A DNA stretch of 64,000 bases, taken from contig JAGFIZ010000066.1 in the NCBI GenBank assembly GCA_024103135.1, positions 12,568 through 76,567 on the forward strand, written 5' to 3'. Source of the stretch: Bradyrhizobiaceae bacterium. Its GTDB lineage: Bacteria; Bacteroidota; Ignavibacteria; Kapaibacteriales; Kapaibacteriaceae. The notes beneath the pieces are model-generated. The model did not search any database and had not been told where the DNA came from. It worked only from the letters and a program-made list of their open reading frames with translations. The translations under genes and the position numbers were made by a program. Positions 9,904 to 48,312 of the stretch are shown here, one piece after another (position 1 is the stretch's first letter; each line of letters opens with the position of its first letter).

Positions 9904-10434
9904 TTAGATCGTGATGATCTCGCCGCGGTTGACAGTGCCGGTGTCCTTGCCAAAGTTTGCCAGCGTAGGCTTTGAGGCCGACACCTTTTCCTGGATGTAC
10001 ATCAGTGCCTTCATCAAGGCTTCGGGGCGTGGCGGACATCCAGCGACGTATGCATCGACAGGGAGGAATTGGTCGATACCTTGAACTACAGGGTACGACC
10101 TGAACATGCCTCCCGAGCTTGTGCACACACCCATGGCGATGCACCACTTTGGATCGGGCATCTGATCCCAGATCTTCTTCACCACCCAGCTCATCTTGTA
10201 GGTTACCGTTCCGGCAACAATCATCAGGTCGGCCTGGCGTGGAGAAAAGCTAAAGCGTTCCGAGCCGAATCGAGATGAGTCTGCACGAGGACCACCAAAC
10301 GCCATCATCTCGATGGCGCAGCAGCTAATGCCCATGGGCATTGGCCAGAGCGAGTTACGCTGAGCCCATGTAACAACGGACTCGAGGGTAGTGGTTACAA
10401 AACCATCGCGTGTGAGATGTTCGTTTAGTCCCAC
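9904..10434 (-). CDS. nuoB: NADH-quinone oxidoreductase subunit B. A GTG start overlaps the nuoA stop by about 10 nt. The track ORF extends to 10545, but that would overlap nuoA by 120 nt.
   Basis: [18 protein letters not shown] and CPPRPEA Fe-S ligand motifs. About 28 aa precede SLWP, as in Nqo6. Confidence 0.85.
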
Positions 10435-10796
10435 CGAAGTGCTCCTTTTCTGATGACGTAGAGGTAGCCGCTGAACAACAGCAGCATGAAGAGGATCATG
10501 GCCACGAAGCCGTACATGCCTAGTTCCTTGAACTGTACAGCCCACGGATACATGAACACAACTTCAATATCGAACAGGATGAACATCATTGCCACAAGGT
10601 AGAACTTCACGGTAAAACGCTCCCGAGCAGTTTTTACTGGTTCCATACCGCTTTCGTAGGTCGACAGTTTTGCCTTTGTCGTCCGCCGCGGTCCAAGCCA
10701 TTCAGCAAGGAAGATATTGCTCACACCAAAGATCAGACCCACGAGGATCATCACCATGAGTGGCACATAGTCAATCAATGGGATATGTTCGTTCAT
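10425..10796 (-). CDS. nuoA: NADH-quinone oxidoreductase subunit A
   Basis: Three TM helices. [23 protein letters not shown]... and [13 protein letters not shown] are typical of NuoA/ND3. The start is taken at the internal Met at 10796. Confidence 0.85.
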
Positions 10797-14693: not shown

Positions 14694-16058
14694 CTATCGA
14701 GCAACGACAACCGACACCGTTCGGAACCGAGCATCGCTTCCCCATACCAGCAGGTAGGAGCCACTTGCAAGTGATGGAGTCGACAAGGCCATCGTCGGCG
14801 CCGTTATAGACCCGCTTGCTACGAGGTTCGCCGCGGCGTCGTAGAGCTGCCAGGTCTTGTCAGTAGGAGCTGGAGCCATGTCGGTTACCACGATGTTGGA
14901 TCCATTGTACTGCGTAAACAACTTTGCTGCCTTACTGCGAGCATCTTCATTCACGTCCGTCGATTCGTCAAGCACGTACAAGCCGACCAGCGTAGCCATG
15001 TATTCGGTGTTGGTTGTTGGATCGCGGTAGAACGACCAGATACTACGGGCTGATTGTCCCAACTCATTCCGTTTCCAGGTAATCCCCTTGTAGCGTTCCC
15101 AGGTTTGTCCACCATCGCGGGAACGATAGACCAAGCTATCGCCTTTAACGATGGTATCGGCTTCCGTTACTCTAAAGCCCCCTAACAAAACATCATCGCT
15201 ACCATCCTTTGTTGGTAGCACATCTACTGCCCAGAACGAGGTATCTGGGAAGCCGATGCGATTCCATGTGCGACCGCGGTCGGTGGACTTTAGAATGCCA
15301 CCATTGCCGGCGATGTTCTCTTCGAGAGCAATTGATACAACAGCATAGCCCACATCGGGATTGTTGGGAGAGAAGACGATCTTTGGAATCTCTGAATCGT
15401 CGCGAATCGTATCCCTTCCATTTACGGAACAGAGCGACCATGAATGTCCGCCATCTTCGCTGCGATAGATCTTTCCACGGGAGGCCCCAAGGAAGAGCAG
15501 ATTTGCATCAACGTTATGGGCAGCGATGGTGTGGAGTTTAGGGGTCTCTGAGAACGGTATTACGGAAATCGAATCCCACGTTTCACCCTTGTCTGTTGAC
15601 CGATAAACAGCTGAGATTCCACGTCCCCTTGCTGCGTAGATCGTACCATCGACCGCTTGCGTAATGGCTTCAGAGACAAACCATGCCTGCCGACCGCTTA
15701 GGTCCTGGAACACGGTGTTAAAGGTCGCACCGCCATCTGTTGACCGCTTGATCCCTGGAAACACATAGCCGCCGACAATAATCGTTGCGGTGTCCTCTGG
15801 ACATATGTGAATCGAGGTGATGAAGTTTGTAACGGACAGTGAACCAACTTCCATGGTTTCCCACGTTGCACCACGATCATTACTAACAAGGATCTGATTA
15901 GCCCAGTTGCCGATGTAAATGCGATCGGGGTTCTTTGGATTCGTTCGCACCGTGTAGGCCTGCTTTGGAAGAAGCAAGCGCCAAGTTCCGATATCAGATG
16001 CCAGTGCAAGACTCGTTGTTGCGCACAGTATCAAGATGATGATTAGGCGATTTTTCAT
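14694..16058 (-). CDS. secreted BNR/Asp-box repeat protein (sialidase/Ycf48-like beta-propeller) with T9SS C-terminal sorting domain
   Basis: Signal peptide. Six SxDxGxTW repeats (SNDRGATWET, STDGGATFNT, STDKGETWDS, SEDGGHSWSL, STDRGRTWNR, SRDGGQTWER). C-terminal ...GSYLLVWGSDARFRTVSVVVAR resembles a T9SS CTD. Confidence 0.7.
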   Translation of the reverse strand: MKNRLIIILILCATTSLALASDIGTWRLLLPKQAYTVRTNPKNPDRIYIGNWANQILVSNDRGATWETMEVGSLSVTNFITSIHICPEDTATIIVGGYVFPGIKRSTDGGATFNTVFQDLSGRQAWFVSEAITQAVDGTIYAARGRGISAVYRSTDKGETWDSISVIPFSETPKLHTIAAHNVDANLLFLGASRGKIYRSEDGGHSWSLCSVNGRDTIRDDSEIPKIVFSPNNPDVGYAVVSIALEENIAGNGGILKSTDRGRTWNRIGFPDTSFWAVDVLPTKDGSDDVLLGGFRVTEADTIVKGDSLVYRSRDGGQTWERYKGITWKRNELGQSARSIWSFYRDPTTNTEYMATLVGLYVLDESTDVNEDARSKAAKLFTQYNGSNIVVTDMAPAPTDKTWQLYDAAANLVASGSITAPTMALSTPSLASGSYLLVWGSDARFRTVSVVVAR

Positions 16059-16079: not shown

Positions 16080-17429
16080 TTAGCCGGGGAAGATGATACC
16101 ACGAGTAACATCGGTACCATTTGTTACAACCACGTACTGCAAAACTGACTGGGCTTGTGATACATGCACTCTCTGTCCTGAAGTACATGTGCCCCTCTGC
16201 AACTCCATTCCACAGGCGTTGACAATGATGTACTGACAAGCCCCCTTCATCCATTCAGGTACGGTGAAGGTCTGACCGACAATCTGCAGTGTAGGGGAGG
16301 GGGCTATGGTTTCGTCAACTTCGACGGACGTGATGTACGTGCTGCGGAACACACCTCCGTTGCTAGCCATAAACAAGGTCGGAATACCGTTGATGCGTGA
16401 AATTGCAAAGCCATAGACGTTGTAGCCAACGATTCCGGACTCATTCTCCGTCCATGGGACGTCGCTGAATTGTTCGAACAAGGTGTCGATGCCATTCGAG
16501 CGAAACACCATGGAATCACCGCGAATGGTTCCATTGTCGAACGGGTAGGTTGGCTGGCAGCCACCGATGAATAGCTCATCGGCACCCTTCGTCGGGTTAA
16601 TGGCAATAGCGTAGGTCGACGTGTCGACCAGGGCAATTCTACTCCAGGTAACACCATAGTCGGAACTCTTGAAGAGCCCAGCATTGGTTGTGTTGTAGAA
16701 CAAGGACATCTGTGTGGTAGCGTACACGACTCCTGGTGTGGATGGACTCCAGGCAAAGTTCCCGACATCGGTGTCGCGATAGGTGGTGAGTGCCTTGCCA
16801 ACCGTCCACGTAACGCCATAGTCAGTCGAGCGATAGATGTTGCAACGTCGACCAGAAACCATAACCAAGTTCGAGCTATCCGGACATACCGTTATGGCAC
16901 GCATGTTATCCGTTGATTCAATGTCCGGTAGTGTGCTCAACTTGGACCACGTTGCACCAGCATCAGTAGAACGATACACTTCACCATAGGTAAAGCGTAA
17001 GGCATACATTGTGTCGGGATGATTCGGATCAAACGTCACGGCACCCGTGCCACCAATCTCAAATCGGAAGCCATCGGGAGTATCGAGCACCGTATTCCAG
17101 GTTGCTCCACCATCGGTGCTCCGATCGAGGCCGCTCATGCCTTGTCCGCCAGCAAAGACAATATTCGATTTCGTTGGGTGCACACCGATGTACTCGATCA
17201 AGGAGCTACCACCTTGTGTTCCTACAGCACGTTCTTCCCAGACAGTGCCACCATCGGTACTCTTGAAGATCGTTCTTGCCACATTCCCAGCGTATAGCGT
17301 CAGTGGATCTTGTGGATCAACGCAGATGGAGTAGACAGCTCGGTTCGGTATGACAGGCATCCAACTCTGTGAAAATCCATCAGTACCAGTAACACCGAGT
17401 ACGACAAGGATGACGGTAAGTGTGCGCAT
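16080..17429 (-). CDS. secreted BNR/Asp-box repeat protein, paralog of the neighbouring gene, with T9SS-like CTD
   Basis: Signal peptide. Repeats STDGGTVWEE, STDGGATWNT, STDAGATWSK, STDYGVTWTV, SSDYGVTWSR. The C-terminal ~70 aa is beta-sandwich-like. Confidence 0.7.
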   Translation of the reverse strand: MRTLTVILVVLGVTGTDGFSQSWMPVIPNRAVYSICVDPQDPLTLYAGNVARTIFKSTDGGTVWEERAVGTQGGSSLIEYIGVHPTKSNIVFAGGQGMSGLDRSTDGGATWNTVLDTPDGFRFEIGGTGAVTFDPNHPDTMYALRFTYGEVYRSTDAGATWSKLSTLPDIESTDNMRAITVCPDSSNLVMVSGRRCNIYRSTDYGVTWTVGKALTTYRDTDVGNFAWSPSTPGVVYATTQMSLFYNTTNAGLFKSSDYGVTWSRIALVDTSTYAIAINPTKGADELFIGGCQPTYPFDNGTIRGDSMVFRSNGIDTLFEQFSDVPWTENESGIVGYNVYGFAISRINGIPTLFMASNGGVFRSTYITSVEVDETIAPSPTLQIVGQTFTVPEWMKGACQYIIVNACGMELQRGTCTSGQRVHVSQAQSVLQYVVVTNGTDVTRGIIFPG

Positions 17430-17492: not shown

Positions 17493-19529
17493 TTAGCGCA
17501 CAACAACCAGTTGTTGTGTGCTTTGTTCGCCACCAATTGAAATCGTCACGTAGTAGGCACCAACCGACAGATTGTTGGTTGGGATGTTCAGACCATGCAA
17601 ACCAGCTTCGAGTGAACCATTGAAGATGGAAGCAACCTTTTCGCCAGTTGGGGCAAAAACGTTGATGCTTACCATGCCTGGTTGATTCATGGTGAAGGCA
17701 AGTTCGGCATTCGCAGAAGTTGGGTTTGGTGTGATGCTGTTGATGTGGAAGGAGTATGATGGCTCTTCGTCGACAGACACAACCGTTGCATTGAAGAACG
17801 TTGTCCGCACAGTGTTTGGCGTACGATAGTCAACCGAAGCATCCAGAACCATGTCCTGAACTTGGTTGATAGCTGGGAGGAATGGATAGTCCTGGCGGTA
17901 CTGTGACTTCTCGATGGTCTTCAACGTAAGAAGTGGAACGCTGGTCAGACTTTCGATAACCGGAGGGATGCGTGTACCGTGATCATATACTCTATCGTTC
18001 GTGAGGTTTCTTGGTGTACTCCATGTGCCACCATTTACTGAACGATAAGAAACGAAGACGTCGGTAGCTGTGATTGCCGTCAATTCGTCTTGAGCCCACT
18101 GACCACTGTTCTGGAAGGCAATGCGCTGCGTAAAGCCAGAATCAATGTATTCAGGGTTGTCGTCGATCCACTTTACGAGGATGCTGCTGCCGTCGGCAGT
18201 TTTGGTAACCTGAACCTCGTGACCGAGCGGGTTAGCCGAGTAAGCTGGAATCCAAGCGTACTGACCTTCGGCATCGGAGATACTGTCTTGACGGATAAAC
18301 TGAAGCGGGAAGCCGTTGATATCGGCAACCTTGTTAAGCGACCATGTACCACCAGCATAGCGTGCTTCGACAATGTCGATTGATGCCCATCGATTTTCTT
18401 CGACGGTACCGAGGCGGAGGATATAGGAGTACTCGTCAGAGCCGGTAACGACGAAGGCATCCATTTCGTAAACACCATAGTTACGAATGTTGCTCCAGCC
18501 ACGTGATGTCTGGTACGATGTAATCAGACTATATGGCATCTTGTTGAAGTCCGACCATGTAGCGCCTTGGTTTTCGGACGAGCTTACCGACGGGACGCGC
18601 TCGCTTGGGTTGGACGTAAAGACAAAATTCCCTGCTGCATACAACTTGCCATCGGCATCAGCTCCAACTAGTGGCGAAGTATTTAGCGTCGAACCAAGAT
18701 TTGGTGGGTCTGGCGTCTGGAACTGATCAATGTTCCATGCAGAGGGTACGGAGTTGGTGGTAAAGTCTTCGGCATTGAAGTCATACCCCCACGTACCAAG
18801 AACGCCATATTGCGTCGGTCCGTTGTTGATTGGCTTGTCCAGGCGCTGTGTATGATAAACAGCTGGATTGTCTGTGCTCACGCCGACCATGTCACCAAAG
18901 ATTCCCCAACCCATATCGGATGGAGCATTGTCAGGTGCTGGCATTGGGAATTCAAACAAGCCACTTGATGGCATGAAGAGACCAACCTGACCGTTGCGAG
19001 CCCAACTACTGGATTGTTCGTACAAACCGCAGAACAGTGCCCAGTTCAGATCTTCGAACTTGGCATTAGCACCCTTGGTGTTAACAACGGCGAAGTTTGG
19101 AAACGGTAGAAACTTGCCGGGTTGGTTATAGGCTTCTACTTCATTCCATGAAGCACCGTTGTCTGTCGTGGTATAGAAGCGCAACTGTCCGCCAGTAAGC
19201 TGGTTGTTTGCGAAAACCCGATTCCCACGTACAAGAATGGTTGTCTTCGAAATTGGTTCGTACACAAACACGCTGTTTTCATTGGCGATTTCCCAGTTAG
19301 GGAAAAAGTCCGTCTGATACATGTTGGTGAACGTAAGCCCCTGAGTATTCTCAGTGTGCTTTTGTGTGGATGGTACCATCTGTACTGGCGGTGTAGCCAA
19401 TGCTGACGGAGAAACCACGAGCGGTTGACGTGGCGTCTGAGACTGCTCGAATAGTACGCTTGGTAGTTGAGCAACTGCTGTGCTAGCACAGATTGCAGCA
19501 AGTCCAAGACCGAGGAGCGATGATTTCAT
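17493..19529 (-). CDS. secreted BNR-like repeat protein with canonical T9SS C-terminal domain
   Basis: Signal peptide. Asp-box-like TTTDNGASWNEV and SENQGATWSDF. C-terminal ...PNPTSANAELAFTM...VGAYYVTISIGGEQSTQQLVVVR is classic TIGR04183-type. Confidence 0.65.
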   Translation of the reverse strand: MKSSLLGLGLAAICASTAVAQLPSVLFEQSQTPRQPLVVSPSALATPPVQMVPSTQKHTENTQGLTFTNMYQTDFFPNWEIANENSVFVYEPISKTTILVRGNRVFANNQLTGGQLRFYTTTDNGASWNEVEAYNQPGKFLPFPNFAVVNTKGANAKFEDLNWALFCGLYEQSSSWARNGQVGLFMPSSGLFEFPMPAPDNAPSDMGWGIFGDMVGVSTDNPAVYHTQRLDKPINNGPTQYGVLGTWGYDFNAEDFTTNSVPSAWNIDQFQTPDPPNLGSTLNTSPLVGADADGKLYAAGNFVFTSNPSERVPSVSSSENQGATWSDFNKMPYSLITSYQTSRGWSNIRNYGVYEMDAFVVTGSDEYSYILRLGTVEENRWASIDIVEARYAGGTWSLNKVADINGFPLQFIRQDSISDAEGQYAWIPAYSANPLGHEVQVTKTADGSSILVKWIDDNPEYIDSGFTQRIAFQNSGQWAQDELTAITATDVFVSYRSVNGGTWSTPRNLTNDRVYDHGTRIPPVIESLTSVPLLTLKTIEKSQYRQDYPFLPAINQVQDMVLDASVDYRTPNTVRTTFFNATVVSVDEEPSYSFHINSITPNPTSANAELAFTMNQPGMVSINVFAPTGEKVASIFNGSLEAGLHGLNIPTNNLSVGAYYVTISIGGEQSTQQLVVVR

Positions 19530-21665: not shown

Positions 21666-23345
21666 CTAGGGAATGCGGACAAAGCGCTGACTGCTCACGA
21701 GCATCGAGCCATCACGTACTTGCATGGTATAGGTGCCGGCGGGGAGTGTAGCAACATTGATGATTGTTGACGTGCTGCTGGCATTGGCAACGAGCTGCAC
21801 GACACCCAGTGCATCAACGATGGTAATGGTGCTCGTTGCTGGCTGACCAGTAATCGTCAGCTGACCATGAGTGGGGTTGGGATAGAGAGCAACTGACGGA
21901 GACATTCCTTCGTGTACGCTGGTCACACTGCCCAGTTCTTGCAGTGGACCACCAGCAGTTTTTGCGACCCAAAGTCCAAGCGGAGCCCCTTGACCATTAC
22001 TTGAAGGCGTTAGAAAACCGCTAAGGAGCACAACACTTGCTTGTCCAGCAAGTGACGTAACGTCGGCGTTCACAGAGAGTATGGTCGAACCATCGGACAA
22101 AGTAACGGTCACCATTTCGGGTCCCGCCTCTAACGAAGCATACGACGTTGCAGCTTGATTATAGACCAGACCCGTTGCTGCCCTGGTTGCTCCATGCGTG
22201 ATGTTGACAGGCGGACAGTCGGTGCAGCCATTCATGTACAGCATGTCGAGAGCTGTTGGACTCAGGCCTGCAGGGAGCAGATTGTCGATCTTCATGAATG
22301 ACAATGCAATCGATTGTTGACTTGGGTTCGGGGCAAAGGCTGTCGTATCCCGAACACCGTTGAGGACGATTGCATACCGTCCCTTTTCAAGTGTGACGGT
22401 TGTAGAAGCAAATATGTCCGTAGCCGACGTACTGCCTGCCGGTGCGATACCAAGTTGAATACTTGTCTTTGTTGGAACTGGCAAGAACTGTGTGGCCGTT
22501 CTGAACTTGAAATCACGATGTGCCAGGGCAGGACCAATGTAGAGGTCGACAACTGCTAGTGAAGGATCGGCCGAGTTATGAATGAGCTGTACGTCTGCAG
22601 CCGATGGAAGAGCCGTTGGCATCAACTGAATGAACGGACCACCAGTAGGTGAAACAAGGTACAGGCCAAATGGCAGACCATTCTGGTTGGCTTGCGGTAC
22701 AAGAAAGCCCGAAGCAAGGATGTATACCGTCTGCTCGTTGAAACTGGTCAAGTCGGCTGCATAAGCGATAAGGGGCTGACCACCTGTAGGAGCCACGGCT
22801 AGTGTATGGTTCACTGCCGGAACTACGCCACCATCTGCAATGCCATTGTAGGCGAGATTGCTGGCAAGTGTCGTGGTGCCTGAAGCAATGTCCATGACTG
22901 GAGCATCGGTTGCTCCTTGCATGAACAGCACATGGGTTGAACCAACAGGAGGCACCGTTGAAGGTACCTCGATTACTATGAAGGCGAAGTCGATGGCTGC
23001 TCCCGCAGGGTTGGCGAGAAACTCAACAGGGTTAAACACACCGGTGGCGACAACAAGGTACTTCTTGCCTGCTTCGAAGGAAAGTTGCTTGTAGAACGTT
23101 GCTTCGGATGACGACGTCGATGTACCGGGAGCGATGCCTACTCGGTGTTCAACGGACGCAGTAACGTCTATGTATGCAGAGGAGAAACGAAAGTTGATAT
23201 CATCAACTTGTTGGTCGTCAATCCAAAAGTCGGCACTTGCAGCAGAAGGGTCTGCACTATTGTTAACAAACTGAATCTGTGCTGTTTGTGCTTGAGTTGC
23301 AATGGCAACCACAAACAGCGCAAGTAGCACTGTTATGCTTCGCAT
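21666..23345 (-). CDS. secreted DUF4397-like repeat protein with T9SS C-terminal domain
   Basis: Signal peptide. Internal duplication (IQFVNNSADPSAASADFWIDD / VQLIHNSADPSLAVVDLYIG). C-terminus ALYPNPTHGQLTI...AGTYTMQVRDG...RFVRIP. Confidence 0.6.
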   Translation of the reverse strand: MRSITVLLALFVVAIATQAQTAQIQFVNNSADPSAASADFWIDDQQVDDINFRFSSAYIDVTASVEHRVGIAPGTSTSSSEATFYKQLSFEAGKKYLVVATGVFNPVEFLANPAGAAIDFAFIVIEVPSTVPPVGSTHVLFMQGATDAPVMDIASGTTTLASNLAYNGIADGGVVPAVNHTLAVAPTGGQPLIAYAADLTSFNEQTVYILASGFLVPQANQNGLPFGLYLVSPTGGPFIQLMPTALPSAADVQLIHNSADPSLAVVDLYIGPALAHRDFKFRTATQFLPVPTKTSIQLGIAPAGSTSATDIFASTTVTLEKGRYAIVLNGVRDTTAFAPNPSQQSIALSFMKIDNLLPAGLSPTALDMLYMNGCTDCPPVNITHGATRAATGLVYNQAATSYASLEAGPEMVTVTLSDGSTILSVNADVTSLAGQASVVLLSGFLTPSSNGQGAPLGLWVAKTAGGPLQELGSVTSVHEGMSPSVALYPNPTHGQLTITGQPATSTITIVDALGVVQLVANASSTSTIINVATLPAGTYTMQVRDGSMLVSSQRFVRIP

Positions 23346-24193: not shown

Positions 24194-24724
24194 TTAGGAT
24201 GGGTTATGTCTACGAGCGATAACAACAGCGCCGATAAGAGCGGCAAGAAGGAGCAACGACACGGCTTCGAATGGGAACAGATACTCGGTGAACAGGCTTT
24301 GTCCGATGGACTCTACTGTCCCAATCTCAATTGCTTTTTGCGGAAGCACGTTAAGTCCCGTTGGCTTGCCAACAAACGTCAACGTCAACATGAGAACGAA
24401 CACTAGGGCGATAGCGGCTCCCGTGACATTCCGGAGCATACTACCGGTCTCGGCCGCTTGCTGTTCGCGGCCAAGGTTCAGGAGCATGATCACGAAGACG
24501 ACGAGTACCATGATTGCCCCTGCATATACGAGCACCTGCACGGCTGCCACAAACTGTGCATGCAGCGTAAGGTATAGGCCAGAGAGCATGAAGAAATGTG
24601 CCACGAGGTTCATGGCTGACGAAACGGGGTTGCGCCTGGTAATGGTTAGCAAGGCAGTGGCCACCGCACCGATGGCAAAGATTGCAAACAGGAGCACCTG
24701 AATGTTGAAGTCACTCATGACCAC
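24194..24724 (-). CDS. nuoJ: NADH-quinone oxidoreductase subunit J
   Basis: 176 aa, multi-TM, NuoJ/ND6-like. It sits directly upstream of nuoK. Confidence 0.8.
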
Positions 24725-27020: not shown

Positions 27021-29933
27021 CTATTGTTTGACGACAGTTTGGTAGGTAACGTGATCTTCGTTGCGAACAATCACAAAGTACGTGCCATTTGCCAGTGTGC
27101 TGACGTTGATCGGAATGGTGCGCTCTCCGCTGAGTTCGCCGTGATAGAGATCAGCAAGACGTTGGCCTGCCAATGAGTAGAGGGCAACATCAATCTCTGA
27201 AGCGTAGCCAACGATGCTTGCCATACAGGTAGACGAAGTAACGTTCCCTGCAATGGAGATCGTGGGGGACGGCTTGACGAGGTATTCGTGAACGGAGGTC
27301 GGATCGGTCGTATCGGCTGTGTCCGGCACCACGGCTCCTTCCAACCACTCGAGTGATCTGTCGAGAACCGTAGTGCGCTGCTTGCCATCACGAAAGCGTG
27401 CAGCGTTGATGCTAAGGAGGACGGTGCGTTGTTCGTTCACGGTGTAACGTGTACATACGATGCTCGACGTGTCGTGGCTTGCACGTAAGGCAGCATGGGT
27501 AGAGTCGGATACGGAGGTTACGACCACATCAGGCACATAGAAGGCACCGCGATGGTGATCAAGACGTGGTAGGGTGCAAAGTACCTGCTTCATGTCAAAC
27601 GTGATGGGATCACGTGCGTCACCTAGGAAGAGTCGCTGTCCATTGTCCGATGGAACTTGATCAGCACCACGTAAACGGGCTCCGAATCGGGAGAAGAAGA
27701 GTGTAGAACCAGGCAGATCTGTTCGCAGTAGCAGCGGGTCGTCTGCTACTAGCATCAGCTCCACGCCGCGATCCAGGAGACCTTGGATTACGGCATCGTC
27801 GGTAACGCTGATCTCACCAAAGCTTCCGCCATTCCACAATACTACTTGCAGGTTGGGGAGTAGATGAGCTGTTCTGACAAAGACGTCGGAACGCAGTGAA
27901 ACATATCCTACACGATCGGTCATGTCTACAGCTTCGGTAATCCTGAACACCTCCATGAGCGCGTCATCCACAACGGCCTTGGTGATTGAACGAGGGACGA
28001 GGGTGGTACGAGCACGAATGCCCTCGGTACCGTCACTCATGCGCTCGCGCAACTCGACTTCAAAGGCATGGAGAGAGTCGGGAAGCGTAAGAGTTACGCT
28101 TAGCATTTGCGTTGTAGCGACTGCGATGGTCACTTCGCTCTCATAGGGCAGTGCAGTCCAGTCGCTTGTCCCGTCCGCCGTTTGTGTTCGGATGTAGGCA
28201 ACGGTCGACGCTGTATGTGGAAGGGGGCTTTGATTATGGTAGTCAAAATCGACGTTGGCTTGAATGTCCGTGACCACGACGTCAGTACGTGCCTGAAGGT
28301 AAGAGTCGGCCTCCGTGTCGAGTCGACCAACAGTGCTGGTAGCTCTATCAACAAACCACAAACGATTGTCAGGTCCGTAGCAAATGCCCAACAATTCGGT
28401 AGCACCGGTGGGGATGGTGCCTAAGGGGTCGACGCCATCAGGAGTGATGGCAAACACATGAATGAGTCCGCTACTACGGTCACCAACGAAGAGGCGATTC
28501 CCTGAGACTTCAATGCCTACTGGTTCCACGAGGCCCGTGTTAATGACCGTGTCGACCATAGCCCCCTTCCATTCACTGTATTCTGCGAGTGGTTCGGTGC
28601 TTTCTTCGGGAGCCACGAGGTTGCGGACGAAGGAGCCGGTGCGAGTGTTCAAGCGCGTGACGATGTTTGCTCCTGGGTCAACGATGTAGAGCATGCCTGT
28701 TGACTTGTCGAGGGCGATATGTCCGGGTTCGCCAAGCTGTCCGCCTGACACGGTTGCATCGGCATACCGGCGGATGACGCCATCACGGTGGTCGGTACCG
28801 CCGACTTCGTGTGGGTCTTTGAAGTCGTAGCGTGTGATGTCCTTATAGTACGCATCGCTTACCCAATAGACATTTGCCGAATCGTGAGCGATTCCAAGAT
28901 TCTGCGGACTCTGGTGAAGCATGTCGAGGTGTGATGCGAGGATCCTTGAATCGCTTTGATAGCGAGAGGCGAACACGGCGGTATCGGCTGACCAGAGTGT
29001 AGGCCCCATAAACTGGTAGAACGGATTGTGGTTGCCAGGTGCACCATTCTGTGCCGTTGCAAACGTTCCGTTGCTGCCCATGGCGATTGCATGGGTTCGC
29101 CACATGAAGTGTGATGCCCGGCTGTCTTTCTTGATGGTGACGGAGCGATGTGCACTATCGATGGCGTTATGCAGAATGGCAATGGCATTCCCCGGATTGC
29201 TTGTTAGCACAACCCATAGATCATGAGGGTTAAGTGGACTATGATTAAAGTCAAGGTCCATCGGTGCGTTGATACCCTCCGCCGGGCCGGCCACAATGGT
29301 AGATCTGACGTTGTTGTTGAGGTATCGATCGGCAGGGTGTGAAGTAGAGGTGGGCATGCCTTGTGCGTGCGGCGTAGCATGGTCGGCAGCAACGCTTACA
29401 AGGTGTTCCAGATCAAGGTAGGGCTCGTCGGTAAGTGTGATGAACTGTACGATGCCCTTGTACACGACCATTGAAGCGTGGAGGTTGAGGGACTTGTTGT
29501 CCAGTCGCTGTTTTGCACCCAAGAGTTTTGCAAACCCATTGTTGGTATCGGTTAGCAGTGTCAGCACTGACGTGTCGTAGTTCATCCGTTGTTGGTGCAG
29601 CGTATTTGTCCGCTCATCATCTGCACTTACAGCATAGACGCGGATACCAAGCTGTTGCAAACGACGTGCATAACGATTGAGGTAGGCAAGCTGTTCGACG
29701 CAGTGTACGCAACTAAAACCCAGGTATCGGACGATGATGATGGGGTGCTGCATGGATGCAGATGTTAGGTCGACCCTGCGTTTGCCCGCAAGAACGTCAT
29801 GGTTAGGCAGCGGCATGGTACGCTGAACACGAGCAGGATAGCTCCGTTGTTCGTGTTCTTGCGTCATCACAGGAGCCGCCGTGCCGACAATCAGCAGAAT
29901 GCTGACGGTAGTGCGAAGTAGGGTGTTCATCAT
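27021..29933 (-). CDS. large secreted multidomain protein: N-terminal redoxin (thiol-disulfide oxidoreductase, CxxC), beta-propeller/NHL-like repeats, canonical T9SS C-terminal domain
   Basis: 970 aa. Signal peptide. FSCVHC in an AhpC/TSA-redoxin-like segment. Repeated YIVDPGANIV / LFVGDRSSGLIHVF-type blades. C-terminus ...VALYSLAGQRL...NGTYFVIVRNE...YQTVVKQ. Confidence 0.6.
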   Translation of the reverse strand: MMNTLLRTTVSILLIVGTAAPVMTQEHEQRSYPARVQRTMPLPNHDVLAGKRRVDLTSASMQHPIIIVRYLGFSCVHCVEQLAYLNRYARRLQQLGIRVYAVSADDERTNTLHQQRMNYDTSVLTLLTDTNNGFAKLLGAKQRLDNKSLNLHASMVVYKGIVQFITLTDEPYLDLEHLVSVAADHATPHAQGMPTSTSHPADRYLNNNVRSTIVAGPAEGINAPMDLDFNHSPLNPHDLWVVLTSNPGNAIAILHNAIDSAHRSVTIKKDSRASHFMWRTHAIAMGSNGTFATAQNGAPGNHNPFYQFMGPTLWSADTAVFASRYQSDSRILASHLDMLHQSPQNLGIAHDSANVYWVSDAYYKDITRYDFKDPHEVGGTDHRDGVIRRYADATVSGGQLGEPGHIALDKSTGMLYIVDPGANIVTRLNTRTGSFVRNLVAPEESTEPLAEYSEWKGAMVDTVINTGLVEPVGIEVSGNRLFVGDRSSGLIHVFAITPDGVDPLGTIPTGATELLGICYGPDNRLWFVDRATSTVGRLDTEADSYLQARTDVVVTDIQANVDFDYHNQSPLPHTASTVAYIRTQTADGTSDWTALPYESEVTIAVATTQMLSVTLTLPDSLHAFEVELRERMSDGTEGIRARTTLVPRSITKAVVDDALMEVFRITEAVDMTDRVGYVSLRSDVFVRTAHLLPNLQVVLWNGGSFGEISVTDDAVIQGLLDRGVELMLVADDPLLLRTDLPGSTLFFSRFGARLRGADQVPSDNGQRLFLGDARDPITFDMKQVLCTLPRLDHHRGAFYVPDVVVTSVSDSTHAALRASHDTSSIVCTRYTVNEQRTVLLSINAARFRDGKQRTTVLDRSLEWLEGAVVPDTADTTDPTSVHEYLVKPSPTISIAGNVTSSTCMASIVGYASEIDVALYSLAGQRLADLYHGELSGERTIPINVSTLANGTYFVIVRNEDHVTYQTVVKQ

Positions 29934-40280: not shown

Positions 40281-40344
40281 ACATACAGAATTGGTTTCAT
40301 CGTATGTTTGCTTGGTTTACAACGACATTGCGAATCGGAGTATC

Positions 40345-42120
40345 ATGCCCCTGATTTACATCGACGGCAAACAGTATGAGGCCCAGGCCGGGCAATCAAT
40401 CATCGAAGCTGCAATGCAGCACGGTATTGTCATACCGCACTTCTGCTGGCATCCAGCGCTTTCTGTAGCGGGGAACTGTCGGATGTGCCTTGTAAACGTA
40501 GGCACGCATAAGAAGGATCAAGACGGCAATCTTCTATATGACGAAGGTGGTGCACCACAGGTAAACTGGATCCCGAAGATGCAGATTGCCTGTGCAACGC
40601 CTGTGGCAGAAGGAATGGTTGTTGATCTAGCCAGCAACAAGACGGAAGATGTGCAGAATGCCGTGATGGAGTTCTTGCTGATCAACCACCCGCTGGACTG
40701 TCCGATTTGTGACGAGGCGGGTCAGTGCAAGCTTCAAGAGTATGCCTTCACCCACAGCACCGGTAAGAGTCGATTCGACGAAGAAAAAACACACAAGCCA
40801 AAGCGTGTGGAGTTTGGTCCAAACGTCATGTTTGACGGCGATCGTTGCATTGCCTGTTCACGCTGCATTCGGTTTGCTAGTGAGGTCGCCAAACAACCAG
40901 CTCTCACGTTTGTCCAGCGTGGTGATCGGGTGACGATTCAGACGTTCCCCGGAACGAAATTCGACAATCCATACTCGATGAATGTGATTGACATTTGTCC
41001 GGTTGGTGCCTTGACGAGCATTGATTTCCGCTTCAGAGCTCGCGTATGGGAAATGAGCTTCACGGATAGCGTTTGCCCAGGCTGCGCTCGTGGTTGCAAC
41101 ATCAAGGTAGGCGTCATGAACAACCAGGTTCTACGCCTTGAACCACGCACCAATCCACACGTCAACGGCTACTGGATGTGCGACCCAGGAAGACTCACGA
41201 CGCCAGGCATCGTCAACAATGCCCGTGTTATGGAGCCCCTTATCCGCCGAAACGGCATGCTGGAAACGGCAACATGGGACGAAGCAACGACGGCCGCCGC
41301 AGAGTTGCTGCGTGGCGTGCAGCCAAGCAAGATCATGGTGCTTGGTAGTGCCTTGGCAACGAACGAGGACAACTATGCCTTGGCGCGGTTTGCTCACGAG
41401 GTGCTGAAGACGCAGAATGTCGACATGATCAAGCATATCGATCAAACGTTTGCCGACGATATGCTTCGTGTGAGCGAGACGGCACCAAATGCCATCGGTG
41501 CACACAGCGTGGGCATTGCTCCAGGGAATGGTGGACATACCGTGGATGCGCTCACCGATCGTATTGCACGTGGTGATGTAAAGGCCGTCATCGTGATGGC
41601 CGATTCAGCCGAGAATCACAGCGAAGCCCTTGCCGCCGCCCTCGCTGGCGTCGACACCGTGATCGCCATCACGCCTCACATGTCCGTTACTGCTCAGTCA
41701 GCTGCCGTGGTACTACCAATGTCGACCTTTGCAGAAACCGAAGGCACATTCACCAACCTCACCCATCGTGTACAGCACTTTAAGCCAGCCGTTGCTACCG
41801 TTGAAACGGCACGGTACATGGGCATGAAGATGAGTCGTTGGGACAAGTATGGCTCCCATAACGACCGTTGGAACAAGGGCGAGAGAAGAAATTGCAGGTC
41901 AGGATGGCACATCATCCAGGATCTTGCAACGGCCTTGGGTGCCTCGTGGGGCTTTGGCTCAAGCAAGGAGGTGTTTGACCACCTTGCACAACACGTTGCT
42001 CCGTTCAAAGGACTCAGCTATGAGGGAATGGATAAGGGGCTAGGTCAGACGCTTGGTAGCAATGGTCACGGTGACGAAACGCCGGTGATCTATGAGAGTT
42101 TTACAATGAAACCGCAGTAG
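40345..42120 (+). CDS. nuoG: NADH-quinone oxidoreductase subunit G (short form, about 591 aa)
   Basis: N-terminal 2Fe-2S ferredoxin fold (CRMCLV), HPLDCPICDEAGQC, and CIACSRCIRF 4Fe-4S motifs, then a molybdopterin-oxidoreductase-like domain. The start is trimmed to MPLIYIDGK. Confidence 0.85.
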   Translation: MPLIYIDGKQYEAQAGQSIIEAAMQHGIVIPHFCWHPALSVAGNCRMCLVNVGTHKKDQDGNLLYDEGGAPQVNWIPKMQIACATPVAEGMVVDLASNKTEDVQNAVMEFLLINHPLDCPICDEAGQCKLQEYAFTHSTGKSRFDEEKTHKPKRVEFGPNVMFDGDRCIACSRCIRFASEVAKQPALTFVQRGDRVTIQTFPGTKFDNPYSMNVIDICPVGALTSIDFRFRARVWEMSFTDSVCPGCARGCNIKVGVMNNQVLRLEPRTNPHVNGYWMCDPGRLTTPGIVNNARVMEPLIRRNGMLETATWDEATTAAAELLRGVQPSKIMVLGSALATNEDNYALARFAHEVLKTQNVDMIKHIDQTFADDMLRVSETAPNAIGAHSVGIAPGNGGHTVDALTDRIARGDVKAVIVMADSAENHSEALAAALAGVDTVIAITPHMSVTAQSAAVVLPMSTFAETEGTFTNLTHRVQHFKPAVATVETARYMGMKMSRWDKYGSHNDRWNKGERRNCRSGWHIIQDLATALGASWGFGSSKEVFDHLAQHVAPFKGLSYEGMDKGLGQTLGSNGHGDETPVIYESFTMKPQ

Positions 42121-42132
42121 GGAATACAACGC

Positions 42133-43182
42133 ATGGACTGGATACAACTCGCCATCATTCTCATACAGGCAGGCATCCTGGTAAACATGATGCTCATTGG
42201 TGCTGCATACATGGTTCTTGCCGAACGGAAAATCGCTGCTTGGATTCAGAACCGAATCGGACCCAATAGGGTGGGCCCATGGGGGATGCTGCAATCATTT
42301 GCCGATGTGTTCAAGCTCTACCTCAAGGAGGACATCGTCCCCCTTGCAGCATCAAGACAGTTTCATGCCCTTGCTCCTGTGATTGCGATTGGCGTAGCCA
42401 TTACGGTGTATGCCATTATTCCATGGAGCGGACCCTTCGTTACCATTGATGGTGTGAAGTATGGTCTTGCCATGGCACCGGACATGAACGTGGCACTCTT
42501 GATCGTGCTGGCCATGACGTCGGTAGGCGTCTATGGCGTTGCTCTTGCAGGCTGGTCTTCAAATAGCAAGTATTCATTGCTTGGCGGACTCCGTTCGGCG
42601 GCCCAGATGATTTCCTATGAGTTGGCAATGGGTCTGTCGGTAGTAGCAGTAGTTCTGGTTAGCGGGTCGCTGAGTCTTGTTGGAATCATTGATGCGCAGA
42701 TTGCCAATGGTTGGAACGTCTTCTATCAACCACTCGGCATCATCATCTTCTTGATCTCTGCCTTTGCGGAAACCAACCGGGCACCGTTCGACCTGCCTGA
42801 GGCAGAACCAGAACTTGTTGGTGGTTACCATACCGAGTACAGCGGCATGAAGTTCGGCCTACTCTACCTAGCGGAGTATGCCAACATTCTTGCTTCCAGT
42901 GCCATCATTGCAACGATCTATTTGGGCGGCTGGGACATCCTGCCGTTTGTTGACGAAGCAAGCTTGTTAGGACTTGATCCTACGTCGGTTCCAATGGTTC
43001 TGATCGGACACGTTGTCTTCTTGTCGAAAGCACTGTTGTTCGTATTCATCTTCATGTGGGTGCGTTGGACGCTTCCACGTTTCAGGTACGACCAACTCAT
43101 GAATCTTGGCTGGAAGATCCTCCTACCACTGGCCTTGGCTAACATTGCCATTACAGGAATTGTGTTGCTACTCATCGGATAA
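42133..43182 (+). CDS. nuoH: NADH-quinone oxidoreductase subunit H
   Basis: LAERKIAAWIQNRIGPNRVGPWGMLQSFADVFKL is the NuoH/ND1 signature. 8 TM. Confidence 0.9.
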   Translation: MDWIQLAIILIQAGILVNMMLIGAAYMVLAERKIAAWIQNRIGPNRVGPWGMLQSFADVFKLYLKEDIVPLAASRQFHALAPVIAIGVAITVYAIIPWSGPFVTIDGVKYGLAMAPDMNVALLIVLAMTSVGVYGVALAGWSSNSKYSLLGGLRSAAQMISYELAMGLSVVAVVLVSGSLSLVGIIDAQIANGWNVFYQPLGIIIFLISAFAETNRAPFDLPEAEPELVGGYHTEYSGMKFGLLYLAEYANILASSAIIATIYLGGWDILPFVDEASLLGLDPTSVPMVLIGHVVFLSKALLFVFIFMWVRWTLPRFRYDQLMNLGWKILLPLALANIAITGIVLLLIG

Positions 43183-43185
43183 ATC

Positions 43186-43686
43186 ATGGCGAACATCAAA
43201 GAGAACATCGAGTCACAACGACTAAACTTCTGGGAAAGAATTTACCTGCCGGAGATTGCCAGGGGGCTTGGACTCTCGCTTAGGCAGATGTTTAGACCAA
43301 AGTTTACACGCCAGTACCCCGAGGAGCGGTGGACGCCTGAAGGATCATACCGTGGCAGACCAGTGTTGGTCTTGGAAGACGATGGCGAACGTTGCGTTGC
43401 CTGTGGCTTGTGCGCACGGGTATGTCCACCACTTGCCATCGAAGTTCGTGCAGCCGAGACCGAACGTGAGAAGGAACGGTATCCCGAAAAGTTCGAAATC
43501 AACATGTTGCGCTGCATCTTCTGCGGCTTCTGCGAAGAAGTCTGTCCAGAAGAAGCCATTGTCATGAGCAAGGACTACGAACTGGTCTTTGGCTCACAGC
43601 CAGAGGGCATCCTTGGTATGGACAAGCTCCTGGTTCCGGTAAGTCAGTTGCAGGAGCGCCTAGAGTTCTTGCGTCAGTGGCGCTAA
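43186..43686 (+). CDS. nuoI: NADH-quinone oxidoreductase subunit I (2x[4Fe-4S])
   Basis: Two CxxCxxCxxxCP motifs ([24 protein letters not shown]). Confidence 0.9.
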
Positions 43687-43739
43687 TGCACCGCTGATTT
43701 GCGCCTTGCGTTGAATCGGTTGTTGTGAAATGAGCTAGA

Positions 43740-45047
43740 CTAGCTTTGCCCGATTTCGCGTAGCAAGGCCTGACGTTCAATTTCCAGTTGTCGGATCTTC
43801 CGCTCGATCGAGTCCAGCTCTTCGGGCATTGAATCAATTTCAATACGCAGTTTCGATGCGGCCTCGTCAACAAGGTCAATGGCCTTGTCAGGCAGGAACC
43901 GGTCCGTGATGTACCGACTACTCAGTTGCGCTGCGGCAACGATGGCTGCATCGGTAATCCGCACGCCATGATGCACCTCGTAGCGTTCCTTGAGTCCGCG
44001 CAAGATGCTGATGGTATCGTCAATCGTTGGTTCGGCAACAAACACCTTCTGGAACCGGCGCTCCAGTGCGGGGTCCTTTTCGATGTGCTGACGGTACTCG
44101 TCGAGCGTTGTCGCACCAATGGCACGGAGCTCGCCACGGGCTAACGCTGGCTTGAGGATGTTGGCAGCATCCATGGCACCTTGTGTGGCACCGGCACCGA
44201 CCAAGGTATGAAGCTCGTCGATGAACAGGATGAATTCTCCGTTACTGTCGGCAACTTCCTTGATGACTGCCTTGAGGCGCTCTTCGAATTGACCTCGGTA
44301 TTGCGTCCCGGCAATCAGTGCTCCCATGTCAAGGGCAAACACCGTCTTTGTCCGCAATGACTCAGGTACATCTTGCGACACAATGCGCTGGGCAATGCCT
44401 TCTACGATTGCCGTCTTTCCGACGCCGGGCTCTCCGATGAGTACGGGGTTGTTCTTGGTTCGGCGTGAAAGCACCTGAAGCACCCGCCTGATCTCGTCCT
44501 CCCTGCCAATTACCGGATCGATCTTTCCCTTCGTGGCTTCTGCATTCAGATTGCGTGCATACTTCTGGAGCGACTGGTAGGCATCTTCGGGGTTTTGACT
44601 GGTGACCCGTTGATTCCCTCTAATCTCCGCAAGAACCTTGAGGATGTTGTCCTTGGTTATTCCCTGGTCCTTAAGCAACGTCCCAGCGGACGATCGGTGT
44701 TCTGCCAGTGCGATGAGCAGGTGTTCGGTTGATACGAACTCATCCTTCAACTGCGATGCCTCCTTGAGGGCCAGTTGCAAGATGGCCTGTACGTCGGACC
44801 CCACGTGTGTACCAGCTACGCCAGCAACGGTAGGCATCTTTTCGATGCCTTCCTGGATCTTCTGACGCAGGTAGTTCATGTTCGCCCCAAGCTTGTTCAA
44901 GATTGGTGGAACAATGCCCGAGGCATCCTGCATGGTTGCCGAAAGCAGGTGGATGGGTTCGAGCGTCTGGTGGTTGGATTCGGTAGCAAGGTGTTGTGCC
45001 TGCTGTAGAGCTTCTTGTGCTTTTAGAGTGAGCTTGTTGATGTTCAT
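43740..45047 (-). pseudogene. clpB: clpB-like gene encoding only the N-domain, AAA module 1 and the start of the coiled-coil M-domain (435 codons). The 3' half is absent.
   Basis: Clp N repeats. Walker A GEPGVGKT. Walker [10 protein letters not shown]. The M-domain begins [30 protein letters not shown], then an in-frame TAG. Only about 50 bp separate this stop from the nuoI 3' end, and no NBD2-coding sequence follows in any frame. Confidence 0.55.
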
Positions 45048-45091
45048 CGTTAGTCCTTTGTTATAGGTGTAAAGACGAACGTATGTGCTGT

Positions 45092-45865
45092 TTATGGCTG
45101 TCCTACCAGGGTGCGGACGACCTCTTGGTACTGTGTCGGCTCGATATTCAAGGCGCCCTCCGCAGGGTGGTCGAAAGAGTAAATCAGAATCAGGATCGAC
45201 GCGATCGTGGCTGCAACGGATGCGAACAACACTGCATGGACGGCTAGACTCAGTGGATCAAAGGCAACGAGGAAGAGGATCATGAAGAGACCGCCAGAAA
45301 CTAGGATGACCCACATCATCGTGTTGATCTTCTCTCTCATCAGACCAAGCCGTTCCATACGTGCCTGCTGTAACACGTCGAACTTGTCAACCAACAACTG
45401 CTCTACCACTGAAACTGATGAGTCGCGCTGCACCAGAACCGTCAATGTTCTCCACATACTGTCGAGACTCGACTCCGAGTGCATCAGCGTCCGCGCATCA
45501 TCGTCCCATTCCTTCGAAACCACATGCTCCGCATAGGTCCTCACCGAATGCTTGATCGCTGATGCTTCACTGCTGGAAAACATCGTGGTGATCCGTGCGA
45601 TAGCCAGAAGAGCCGAAGCCTCCTTCTCGATTGCATGGTTAAGGTCAACATGTCGTTCAAGACCATTTACCGTAACCAGTCCTAGGACGATACCATACAG
45701 CACACCTGTATTCAGGTAAGCCGTGGATGACACCTCATGGGCCTTCCTAAGAGTTTCCTTCGACAAGGTGCGGCTAAGCCAGGAGCGGCAAAGGAGTCCT
45801 GCACCTGCCGAAAGCGCGGCAGTCACCAGAACAACTAGCCACCAGGGTAACAGTGAAAATATCAT
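45092..45865 (-). CDS. hypothetical integral membrane protein (DUF4239-like)
   Basis: N-terminal and C-terminal TM helices with a central soluble region. No catalytic motif. Confidence 0.4.
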
Positions 45866-46743: not shown

Positions 46744-48312
46744 ATGCCGCGAATACTCTGGGTCGACGACGAGATTGAGCTCCTCAAACCACACCTGATT
46801 CTTCTTGAGCAGCGTGGCTACGAGGTGCAGACAGCCACGAACGGTGAAGATGCAATCGAGCTGGCGCAGGAGACGCGGTATGATCTTGTGTTCCTGGACG
46901 AGATGATGATGGGCATCAGCGGGTTGGAAACACTCTCTGTCCTTAAGGACATTGATGCGTCCGTGCCAGTAGTCATGGTGACCAAGAACGAGCAGGAATC
47001 GCTCATGGAAGAAGCCATCGGCAGGAAGATCGACGACTACCTTACCAAGCCAGTGAACCCGACGCAAGTTCTTGCTGCCTGCAAGAAGTTCCTCGAAACA
47101 CGGCGCATTACCGAGTCCAAGATCACGCAGGACTTTCACCAACAGTACAGCGTCATCTCACGTCGGCTCCTTGACAAAATGGATTGGGCAGAGTGGTTGG
47201 ACGTGTACTTGAAGTTGGTTGGTGGAAGCATCGAGCTGGATTCGCATCCCGACATGGGACTTGAGCAATCCCTACGTGATCAGTGGAAGGAATGCAATGC
47301 AGAGTTCTGCAAGTTCATCGAGTCGGAATATCAAGGTTGGCTCGCCGACAGACGTCAGCGCGAGCCCGACATGCCTCTGCTTTCACCACACGTACTCGAT
47401 CAATGGCTTGTGCCGCACCTTTCAAATGGAAAGCCTACGTTCTTCATCGTCGTAGACTGCATGCGAATGGATCAGTGGATGGTCATGGAAGAATACATCC
47501 GCCCATTGTTCAACATTCAGCGTGACTATTACTGCGGCATCCTTCCAACGGCTACGCCATACGCACGCAATGCCATCTTTGCCGGCTTGTACCCAACGGA
47601 AATCAACAAGCACTATCCTCAGTATGCTATTGACGAACGGGGCAACGACGAGCATACGTTGAATCGGCATGAGAAGGATCTTCTTGCCCTGTTCCTGCAG
47701 AGGAAGCGGATCACACTCAAGAACGACTTGCAGTACATCAAGATCATCGACACGGAGTTCGGGAAGCGGATTGAAGCCGACATCCTTCGGTATGCTCGAC
47801 ATCACCTCACGGCCATTGTCATCAATGCCGTGGATATGATTGCTCACTCACGCTCCGACTATCCAATCCTGAAGGAGATTGCACCCGACGAGAGTGCCTA
47901 CCGTACGCTTACCCGTAGCTGGTTCCTGCATAGCTCGTTCTATGGCATTTTGCGGACCCTTGCCACCGTGCCAGACGTGCAGATCGTGATCACTACCGAC
48001 CACGGTAGCGTGCGCTGTCTACGTGGCAGCAAGGTCATCGGCGACCGTGAGACCACCACCAACCTTCGGTACAAGATTGGTCGGAACATCAAGGCTGATG
48101 AGCGCGAGGCACTCCTCGTAAAGAACTCCGAAACCTATCGAATTCCCGCACCCGGTGTGGCTACCACGTGTGTGATCGCAAAGGAAGATCGGTACTTTGT
48201 CTATCCCACCGACTACCACCACTACCTACAGAAGTATCGCGATTCATTCCAGCACGGAGGGATTTCACTGGAAGAAATGATCTTGCCGGTGATTACACTA
48301 AAGCCAAGATAG
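46744..48312 (+). CDS. porX: PorX-type response regulator: CheY-like receiver fused to a PglZ (alkaline-phosphatase superfamily) domain
   Basis: REC domain with acidic pocket and phospho-acceptor context (ILWVDDE...DLVFLDEMMMG...VVMVTK). C-terminal PglZ-type TDHGSV and phosphatase-fold motifs. 522 aa, matching PorX size. Confidence 0.75.
   Translation: MPRILWVDDEIELLKPHLILLEQRGYEVQTATNGEDAIELAQETRYDLVFLDEMMMGISGLETLSVLKDIDASVPVVMVTKNEQESLMEEAIGRKIDDYLTKPVNPTQVLAACKKFLETRRITESKITQDFHQQYSVISRRLLDKMDWAEWLDVYLKLVGGSIELDSHPDMGLEQSLRDQWKECNAEFCKFIESEYQGWLADRRQREPDMPLLSPHVLDQWLVPHLSNGKPTFFIVVDCMRMDQWMVMEEYIRPLFNIQRDYYCGILPTATPYARNAIFAGLYPTEINKHYPQYAIDERGNDEHTLNRHEKDLLALFLQRKRITLKNDLQYIKIIDTEFGKRIEADILRYARHHLTAIVINAVDMIAHSRSDYPILKEIAPDESAYRTLTRSWFLHSSFYGILRTLATVPDVQIVITTDHGSVRCLRGSKVIGDRETTTNLRYKIGRNIKADEREALLVKNSETYRIPAPGVATTCVIAKEDRYFVYPTDYHHYLQKYRDSFQHGGISLEEMILPVITLKPR

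Follow-up and report, generated by a model that had tools for sequence, protein, structure and literature searches.

ClpB/Hsp104 is a model AAA+ machine, and the communication between its middle domain and its two ATPase rings is still probed with engineered fragments and mutants. The middle domain, a coiled coil of about 120 aa inserted in the small subdomain of the first nucleotide-binding domain (NBD1), sets ClpB apart from ClpA and ClpX. Separately expressed fragments of Thermus ClpB reportedly reconstitute activity, and the laboratory cut is said to have been made after the middle domain (NBD1-M plus NBD2, the second nucleotide-binding domain). In the present study, a stretch of 64,000 nt from contig JAGFIZ010000066.1 (the whole of it is called the window below) was found to carry clpB-N, an open reading frame (ORF) that encodes the N-terminal half of a ClpB. 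It is quite probable, judging from sequence comparison, that this ORF is the functional clpB-N of a fissioned ClpB and that its counterpart, clpB-C, lies elsewhere in the genome. In this bacterial lineage, ClpB would most likely be the product of two separate genes, with the cut at a single exposed loop. A naturally split ClpB is an unusual form of a well-known chaperone, and the gene itself is real and ordinary-looking. The study of Beinker et al. 2005 (J Biol Chem 280:37965), which concerns by its title a two-fragment Thermus thermophilus ClpB, provides a biochemical precedent.

The window protein was first of all a ClpB. Its best solved-structure matches were genuine ClpB proteins (Mycobacterium tuberculosis, Escherichia coli, and T. 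thermophilus) over their residues 1–433, and the structures of ClpC, ClpA, and Hsp104 scored below them. The NBD1 motifs comprised Walker A GEPGVGKT, pore-loop TQYRG, Walker B IDELH, sensor-1 ATT, and the Arg fingers ERRF, and the catalytic residues mapped onto the E. coli ClpB sites. On the TIGR03346 model, the protein covered positions 1–428 with 681.5 bits, which was under the curated cutoff of 1232.1 bits. An earlier note, made from the sequence alone, had read a ClpB N-domain and NBD1 followed by a TAG stop, and this was borne out by Pfam and by the 435-aa ORF; the start of 43687 given there includes the spacer next to the gene. The same note had also recognized the first helices of the middle domain, but only the first helix is present, up to the equivalent of E. 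coli E432. Accordingly, the middle domain on this polypeptide consists of helix 1 alone and not of the complete coiled coil, and AAA module 2 and the D2-small domain are absent from the chain, since the ORF stops at aa 435.

In the alignment, E431 of the window protein corresponded to E432 of E. coli ClpB. By this comparison, the cut is in the hairpin turn (SDEASKK in E. coli) between helices 1 and 2 of the middle domain. Full-length relatives of the same radiation, such as L014–L017, have a 9-residue insertion at the same loop (KRE-LTSNYATDV-DKKATQKKLEDIE), indicating that the loop tolerates insertions and deletions. In E. coli ClpB, motif 1 of the middle domain spans E410–Y455, with E432 at the end of the coil; the E432A variant is repressed, whereas the delta-M1 variant (deletion of E410–Y455) is hyperactive (Carroni et al. 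2014, PMC4023160). Furthermore, the tip of motif 1 touches the neighbouring motif 2 head to tail and controls the access of DnaK (PMC4023160). The E. coli variants and the natural break concern the same structural element. However, the former keep a single chain that carries a point mutation or a deletion, whereas here the chain ends just past the conserved Glu and short free tails replace SDEASKK. With the covalent turn at the regulatory motif-1 tip gone, the split ClpB may plausibly be repressed or activated differently.

The remaining part of ClpB was not found in the window. No NBD2-like sequence was detected in the 64 kb by tblastn with generic C-halves and three lineage-specific ones (E ≤ 10), and Pfam analysis of the window ORFs of at least 420 aa revealed no ClpB C-half among them. 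Reading through the TAG gave 19 unrelated codons and then a second TAG. These results agreed with the earlier note, in which no NBD2-like sequence had been seen downstream and the TAG had been placed about 50 bp from the convergent nuoI stop (53 nt as measured).

Stand-alone C-half genes were obtained with a profile from the C-halves of the closest full-length relatives and a second search with one of the matches. The proteins (443–453 aa) formed three clades, A, B, and C, each with 100% bootstrap; in addition, a 437-aa stand-alone C-half was found in a Chloroherpetonaceae metagenome-assembled genome (MAG), with no N-half within 5 kb upstream. The C-halves start with a variable leader of 8–15 aa, followed by T(K/R)xRL-EIE-ELAEL, which corresponds to E. 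coli residues ~438–441 onward and is the sequence after the loop in full-length ClpB. The R440-L441 equivalent is reached 8–15 aa after the C-half start. They carry the rest of the middle domain and NBD2, and retain the motif-2 Tyr Y503, Walker A2/B2, pore loop 2, the Arg finger, and sensor 2. On TIGR03346 (853 positions), they matched positions 432–849 with 632–646 bits. The end of the N-half and the start of the C-half therefore meet at one ClpB position (model positions 1–428 and 432–849) without overlap or loss, and the two scores sum to about 1328 bits, above the cutoff that each half alone fails to reach. The sub-cutoff scores may explain why both halves are named 'AAA family ATPase' at NCBI. 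Moreover, the C-half genes come from MAGs with the same taxon labels as the N-half MAGs, and the G+C (guanine plus cytosine) content matches. Thus, the separate gene for the missing half, which the earlier note had allowed for in place of a pseudogene, exists at the level of related lineages. The C-half genes of clade B are in a conserved context, between plsY-gpsA and DUF5723-CoA_binding_2, and those of clade A sit behind RNase R; in both clades, 390–600 nt of non-coding DNA is found upstream. A split intein or trans-splicing was considered and rejected: the N-half tail of 1–7 aa and the C-half leader of 8–15 aa are far from the intein halves of about 100 and 35 aa that would be needed, and Pfam found no extra domains.

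In two genomes of clade C, represented by the contigs L180 (1.81 Mb) and L183 (524 kb), both halves were found side by side in the order dnaK, clpB-N, clpB-C. The clpB-N of these contigs encodes 437 aa and ends with EALKRE-IYA or EALKRE-LQA. It is separated from clpB-C by a spacer of 22 or 16 nt, and clpB-C, which lies in a different frame, has its own ATG and encodes 453 or 451 aa. The halves have their own translation start signals, namely AAGGA before clpB-N of the window, and AGGAG or GAGGAA in the spacer of L180 and L183, with the ribosome-binding site 6–7 nt before the ATG of clpB-C. The leader of clpB-C, MTE(L/F)..QE.T(K)KRL, is shared by seven clusters that derive from assemblies of JGI, NCBI, ENA, and Logan; therefore, a sequencing frameshift was ruled out as the cause of the split. 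L180 and L183 look like an in-situ stage of the fission, and the window like a dispersed stage. The dnaK of L183 (2500-4427) was called as two ORFs of 361 and 266 aa, for which an indel error in long reads may be responsible. Between dnaK and clpB-N of L180 (8593-8664), there is a stem-loop rich in G+C with a T-run after it, which could be an attenuator or a terminator. The CIRCE heat-shock operator was looked for upstream of both clpB halves, and none was found.

Based on these comparisons, the following arrangement is proposed. The clpB gene would have been cut in the hairpin loop at the motif-1 tip, directly after the E432 equivalent, and clpB-C, located elsewhere in the genome of the window organism, would encode the remaining middle-domain helices, the last helix of the NBD1 small domain, AAA module 2, and the C-terminal small domain. 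The two polypeptides would associate non-covalently. In the antiparallel coiled coil of motif 1, formed in trans, helix 1 would come from the N-half and helix 2 from the C-half, and the returning helix from the C-half would complete the small domain of NBD1. The product may be a 6+6 ring of two tiers with the DnaK-dependent disaggregase activity of ordinary ClpB; the motif-2 Tyr kept in the C-halves and the dnaK-clpB-N-clpB-C order in L180 and L183 are consistent with the dependence on DnaK. Compared with the single-chain proteins of TIGR03346 (E. coli, T. thermophilus 1QVR, and M. tuberculosis 6DJU), the domain order and the catalytic and regulatory residues are the same, with the N-half aligned to E. 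coli residues 1–432 and the C-halves from about 438 to the end, and the linkage to dnaK is shared by one split lineage. The difference is that the chain is interrupted after the E432 equivalent and the halves are separate genes, which are not neighbours in the lineage of the window. Activity without a covalent link between the AAA modules is reportedly a property of the engineered Thermus protein, as it would be of the split ClpB. However, that protein is said to be cut after the middle domain, whereas the natural cut is inside it, at the tip of motif 1, and the coiled coil itself must therefore form in trans. ClpB80 and other N-terminally truncated isoforms are alike in that a shorter ClpB product occurs beside or instead of the full-length one, but ClpB80 lacks the N-domain only, arises from an internal start in the same gene, and has both AAA modules on one chain.

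The conservation of clpB-N was analyzed by a homologue search among 5.8 billion proteins, and the figures on half-size clusters rest on the best 120 matches. Almost all of these were 433–440 aa long and 75–86% identical to the window protein, and the half-size homologues share an end point, ALLRE followed by 2–7 variable residues. The longer matches P0044 and P0057 have N-terminal extensions with the C-terminus unchanged, while two others, P0007 (629 aa) and P0130 (867 aa), were rejected as longer relatives, both being chimeric or duplicated assemblies. The named matches were MAGs labelled Ignavibacteria, Kapabacteria, or 'Chlorobi bacterium', and one was in the closed 2.99-Mb genome CP129493.1. 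In an alignment of 40 family members, Walker A, Walker B, sensor-1, and R331 were invariant, the other Arg finger, R330, was conserved in at least 90%, and the pore-loop position was always Y or F. Helix 1 was nearly wholly invariant up to E431, and free variation occurred only past it. The nonsynonymous divergence (dN) of clpB-N from its orthologue in CP129493.1 was 0.135, with synonymous divergence saturated; in the same comparison, the dN values of nuoI, RR-PglZ, and aminotransferase (neighbouring genes) were 0.105, 0.130, and 0.118, respectively. Within the species, the most divergent contigs (L085–L090) had 10–11 synonymous and 2 non-synonymous differences from the window. Accordingly, clpB-N is intact, conserved, and under purifying selection.

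Some matches had unexpected labels or residues. P0003 (MCO6466098.1), deposited as 'Bradyrhizobiaceae bacterium', is the same N-half without the first 38 residues (397 aa, 100% identity, 91% of the query), and P0051 (HLP27538.1), a 77% relative, was deposited as 'Candidatus Didemnitutus sp.'; both probably come from mis-binned or mislabelled MAG contigs. P0195, a 432-aa match from the representative library, is a ClpB N-half of 50% identity that also ends with EALLRE. Conserved glycines are replaced by W in it (VWDPWVGKT), as would be expected if the lineage has recoded UGA and the translation table used was the wrong one.

The earlier note had proposed either a deletion-generated pseudogene, its 3' half lost and the locus joined to nuoI, or an assembly join at 43650-43800. 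A pseudogene would account for an ORF of half the normal length with no remnant downstream. However, the length and the end point are shared among more than 120 related clusters, the catalytic sites are intact, the substitutions follow a pattern of purifying selection with a dN like that of the housekeeping neighbours, and the neighbourhood is kept across lineages of 77–82% protein identity, so that the pseudogene reading is refuted and very improbable. Nor does the junction mark a replacement of the 3' half by nuoI or a rearrangement breakpoint in this genome. Three other species-level lineages have clpB-N and nuoIHG in the same convergent arrangement, with flanking synteny over more than 15 kb, and any rearrangement is therefore ancient. 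The only argument for a chimeric contig is the unusual gene length. Against it, clpB-N was recovered on ten Logan contigs assembled from as many SRA runs, with 2–13 nucleotide differences from the window and a product that is the same or differs by 1–2 residues, and every contig that reaches a flank has the same neighbour, bestrophin-like or nuoI. The gene is also present in NCBI MAG records, and the gene order is the same in the closed genome CP129493.1. An assembly join is thus refuted too and is the least credible of the explanations, with hardly any probability left to it.

The remaining explanations accept the gene and differ from the two-gene reading in the role of its product. The C-half could have been lost, leaving a protein of N-terminal domain, NBD1, and helix 1 that acts alone, as a single-ring ATPase, a holdase, or a regulator of other AAA+ chaperones. 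In its favour, the window was found to lack a C-half, no genome of the main split clade had one within 10 kb, and an isolated Thermus ClpB NBD1-M construct is an active, oligomerising ATPase (PMC4239642). On the other hand, helix 1 is invariant right to the cut yet would have no partner inside such a protein, C-half genes that start at the complementary residue are abundant under the same taxon labels and with matching G+C, and the adjacent pair in L180 and L183 shows the halves kept together. We regard a stand-alone N-half as unlikely. The half-gene could also be an accessory paralogue, a duplicated fragment beside a full-length clpB, its product modulating full-length ClpB through mixed hexamers, for which the shortened isoform ClpB80 annotated in the E. 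coli ClpB entry is a parallel. However, identity to the nearest full-length ClpBs is no higher than about 72% and these group apart, the half-gene family has been conserved to the same degree as its single-copy neighbours, and the matching C-half-only genes would be left unexplained; this role is more unlikely still. Even taken together, a stand-alone N-half and an extra full-length clpB have a small probability. The stable N-terminal product that the earlier note had offered as a further possibility was closer to the truth, whereas the dominant regulator that it had in mind is less favoured than a subunit of a two-gene ClpB. Several results do weigh against the two-gene reading. The searches made yielded no C-half gene from the window's own genome or from others of its immediate clade. 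Both halves within one genome were seen for the adjacent-split lineage (L180 and L183) alone. In addition, the AlphaFold2 model of the N-half had a mean predicted local distance difference test (pLDDT) score of 63.9 with a shallow 40-sequence alignment; the scores over the ClpB N-terminal domain were 74–93. Linking N- and C-halves to one genome through NCBI accession blocks and shared sample ids gave no match, and the window and the C-half contig L091 resembled each other too weakly in tetranucleotide composition (r = 0.63) for the comparison to be used. In a scan of the genome collection with the C-half P0418, the matches listed were universal NBD2 motifs from random phyla, and L096 alone was useful.

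The number of fissions was investigated with 80 metagenome loci of relatives and a neighbour-joining bootstrap tree on the N-half region. Most of the loci (59–72% identity) were full-length in one frame, and short N-halves with the same stop were scattered among them. A single origin of all split forms was recovered in 0 of 100 replicates. The clade of the window was monophyletic in 85 of 100, L180 was nested among full-length genes in 100 of 100, L035 and L048 grouped with another full-length clade in 86 of 100, and L061 grouped with a third full-length clade in 81 of 100. The C-half tree was compatible with the N-half tree, its deep nodes being poorly resolved. The neighbour-joining tree suggests at least three independent fissions at one loop. 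This looks like a rare case in which the gene of an essential-type chaperone was split repeatedly at the same site. A bolder reading is that at least three cuts after the E432 equivalent in the Ignavibacteria-Kapabacteria-Chlorobi radiation first gave adjacent cistrons behind dnaK, which were then dispersed, and that the outcome is an adaptive, differently gated disaggregase with independently expressed and regulated AAA tiers. Under this reading, the break would be adaptive and not neutral, since ClpB is held in its repressed state by the head-to-tail contact of the very loop that is cut. This can be offered only tentatively, and we consider it rather doubtful.

For the green sulfur bacterium Chlorobaculum tepidum, curated databases appear to list half-size 'ClpB 1' and 'ClpB 2' entries, from two separate genes of about 440 aa each for the N- and C-halves of ClpB, and curators may already be aware of the phenomenon. 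The entries would fit the 437-aa C-half of the Chloroherpetonaceae MAG; the window is from a different lineage, labelled Kapabacteria/Ignavibacteria. Most Chlorobi have been treated as lacking ClpB (Gupta & Lorenzini 2007). A literature search found no paper on a naturally split ClpB, nor on the half-size entries of C. tepidum. With both halves under the generic label 'AAA family ATPase', metabolic and stress-response surveys of these bacteria, which are widespread in wastewater and sediment, would record ClpB as missing or as a pseudogene. If true, a two-chain ClpB would show that the coiled coil can form in trans. The split ClpB would offer a ready-made test system for motif-1/motif-2 gating and for the coupling of NBD1 and NBD2.

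The features of the locus are collected in Table 1.

Table 1. Features of clpB-N and its immediate surroundings in the window.
Feature	Position	Strand	Basis or remark
clpB-N, complete coding sequence, N-terminal half of a probable split ClpB	43740..45047	-	435 aa, ATG to TAG; Pfam, TIGR03346
ClpB N-terminal domain, two Clp_N repeats, ~aa 1-145	44613..45047	-	Pfam PF02861, 2 stretches, E=1.5e-23
AAA module 1 (NBD1) large subdomain, ~aa 160-340	44028..44570	-	Pfam AAA
NBD1 small (lid) subdomain, ~aa 342-404	43836..44024	-	Pfam AAA_lid_9 match spans aa 342-431
Middle-domain helix 1 (motif 1, first coiled-coil strand), aa 405-431, ends at E431	43755..43835	-	alignment with E. coli ClpB
Putative fission point: non-conserved 4-aa tail IGQS and TAG stop	43740..43754	-	tails of relatives after ...RE vary (1-7 residues)
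53-nt spacer between the convergent clpB-N and nuoI stops	43687..43739	.	ORF coordinates
Shine-Dalgarno-like AAGGA, 6 nt upstream of the clpB-N ATG	45054..45058	-	read from the sequence
nuoI, convergent neighbour, context only, not part of ClpB	43186..43686	+	Pfam Fer4 dicluster

The gene order in the window was PNPOx, OppCB, RuvA, His_biosynth, OMP, and nuoG-H-I, followed by clpB-N and the bestrophin-like gene, both facing nuoI, and then by 4HBT, RR-PglZ, TsaE, and aminotransferase. The same order was found in CP129493.1/LLZP01 (82% ClpB-N identity), GCA_963853545.1, and GCA_016708405.1 (both 77%), and lineage-specific insertions were the sole differences among the syntenic genomes. In relatives, a PhdYeFM antitoxin/PIN toxin pair lies between clpB-N and nuoI (11450-12128 in L003, the CP129493.1 locus, and 11390-12045 in L192–L195). 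The window is without this pair and has the 53-nt spacer instead, in which a simple scan found no terminator-like hairpin. The bestrophin-like membrane protein gene (45092-45865, minus strand) has the orientation of clpB-N, and its end is 44 nt upstream of it. The pairing of the two genes was also present in the genomes of P0054 and P0058 and absent from CP129493.1, which lacks the bestrophin-like gene, and they may form an operon. The RR-PglZ gene (46744-48312, plus strand), in which a response-regulator (RR) receiver domain is fused to a PglZ (alkaline-phosphatase-like) domain, was a neighbour kept in all syntenic genomes.

The complex I genes of the window were scattered (9904-10545, minus strand; 24194-24724, minus strand; 40291-43686, plus strand). 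A lone nuoB and a lone nuoJ, which adjoins relA/spoT, lie 30 and 16 kb from the isolated nuoG-H-I trio, and the trio is kept as such in related genomes. Such scattering indicates that operons have been heavily broken up in this lineage, by the process that also dispersed the clpB halves. Furthermore, a 970-aa ORF (27021-29933, minus strand) had an N-terminal AhpC/redoxin domain (aa 45–169) as its sole Pfam match, with about 800 aa beyond it without a match. In addition, two tandem paralogous BNR/Sortilin-Vps10 repeat proteins adjoin two proteins with type IX secretion C-terminal sorting domains (14694-16058, 16080-17429, 17493-19529, and 21666-23345, all on the minus strand), which is consistent with a Bacteroidota-type organism.

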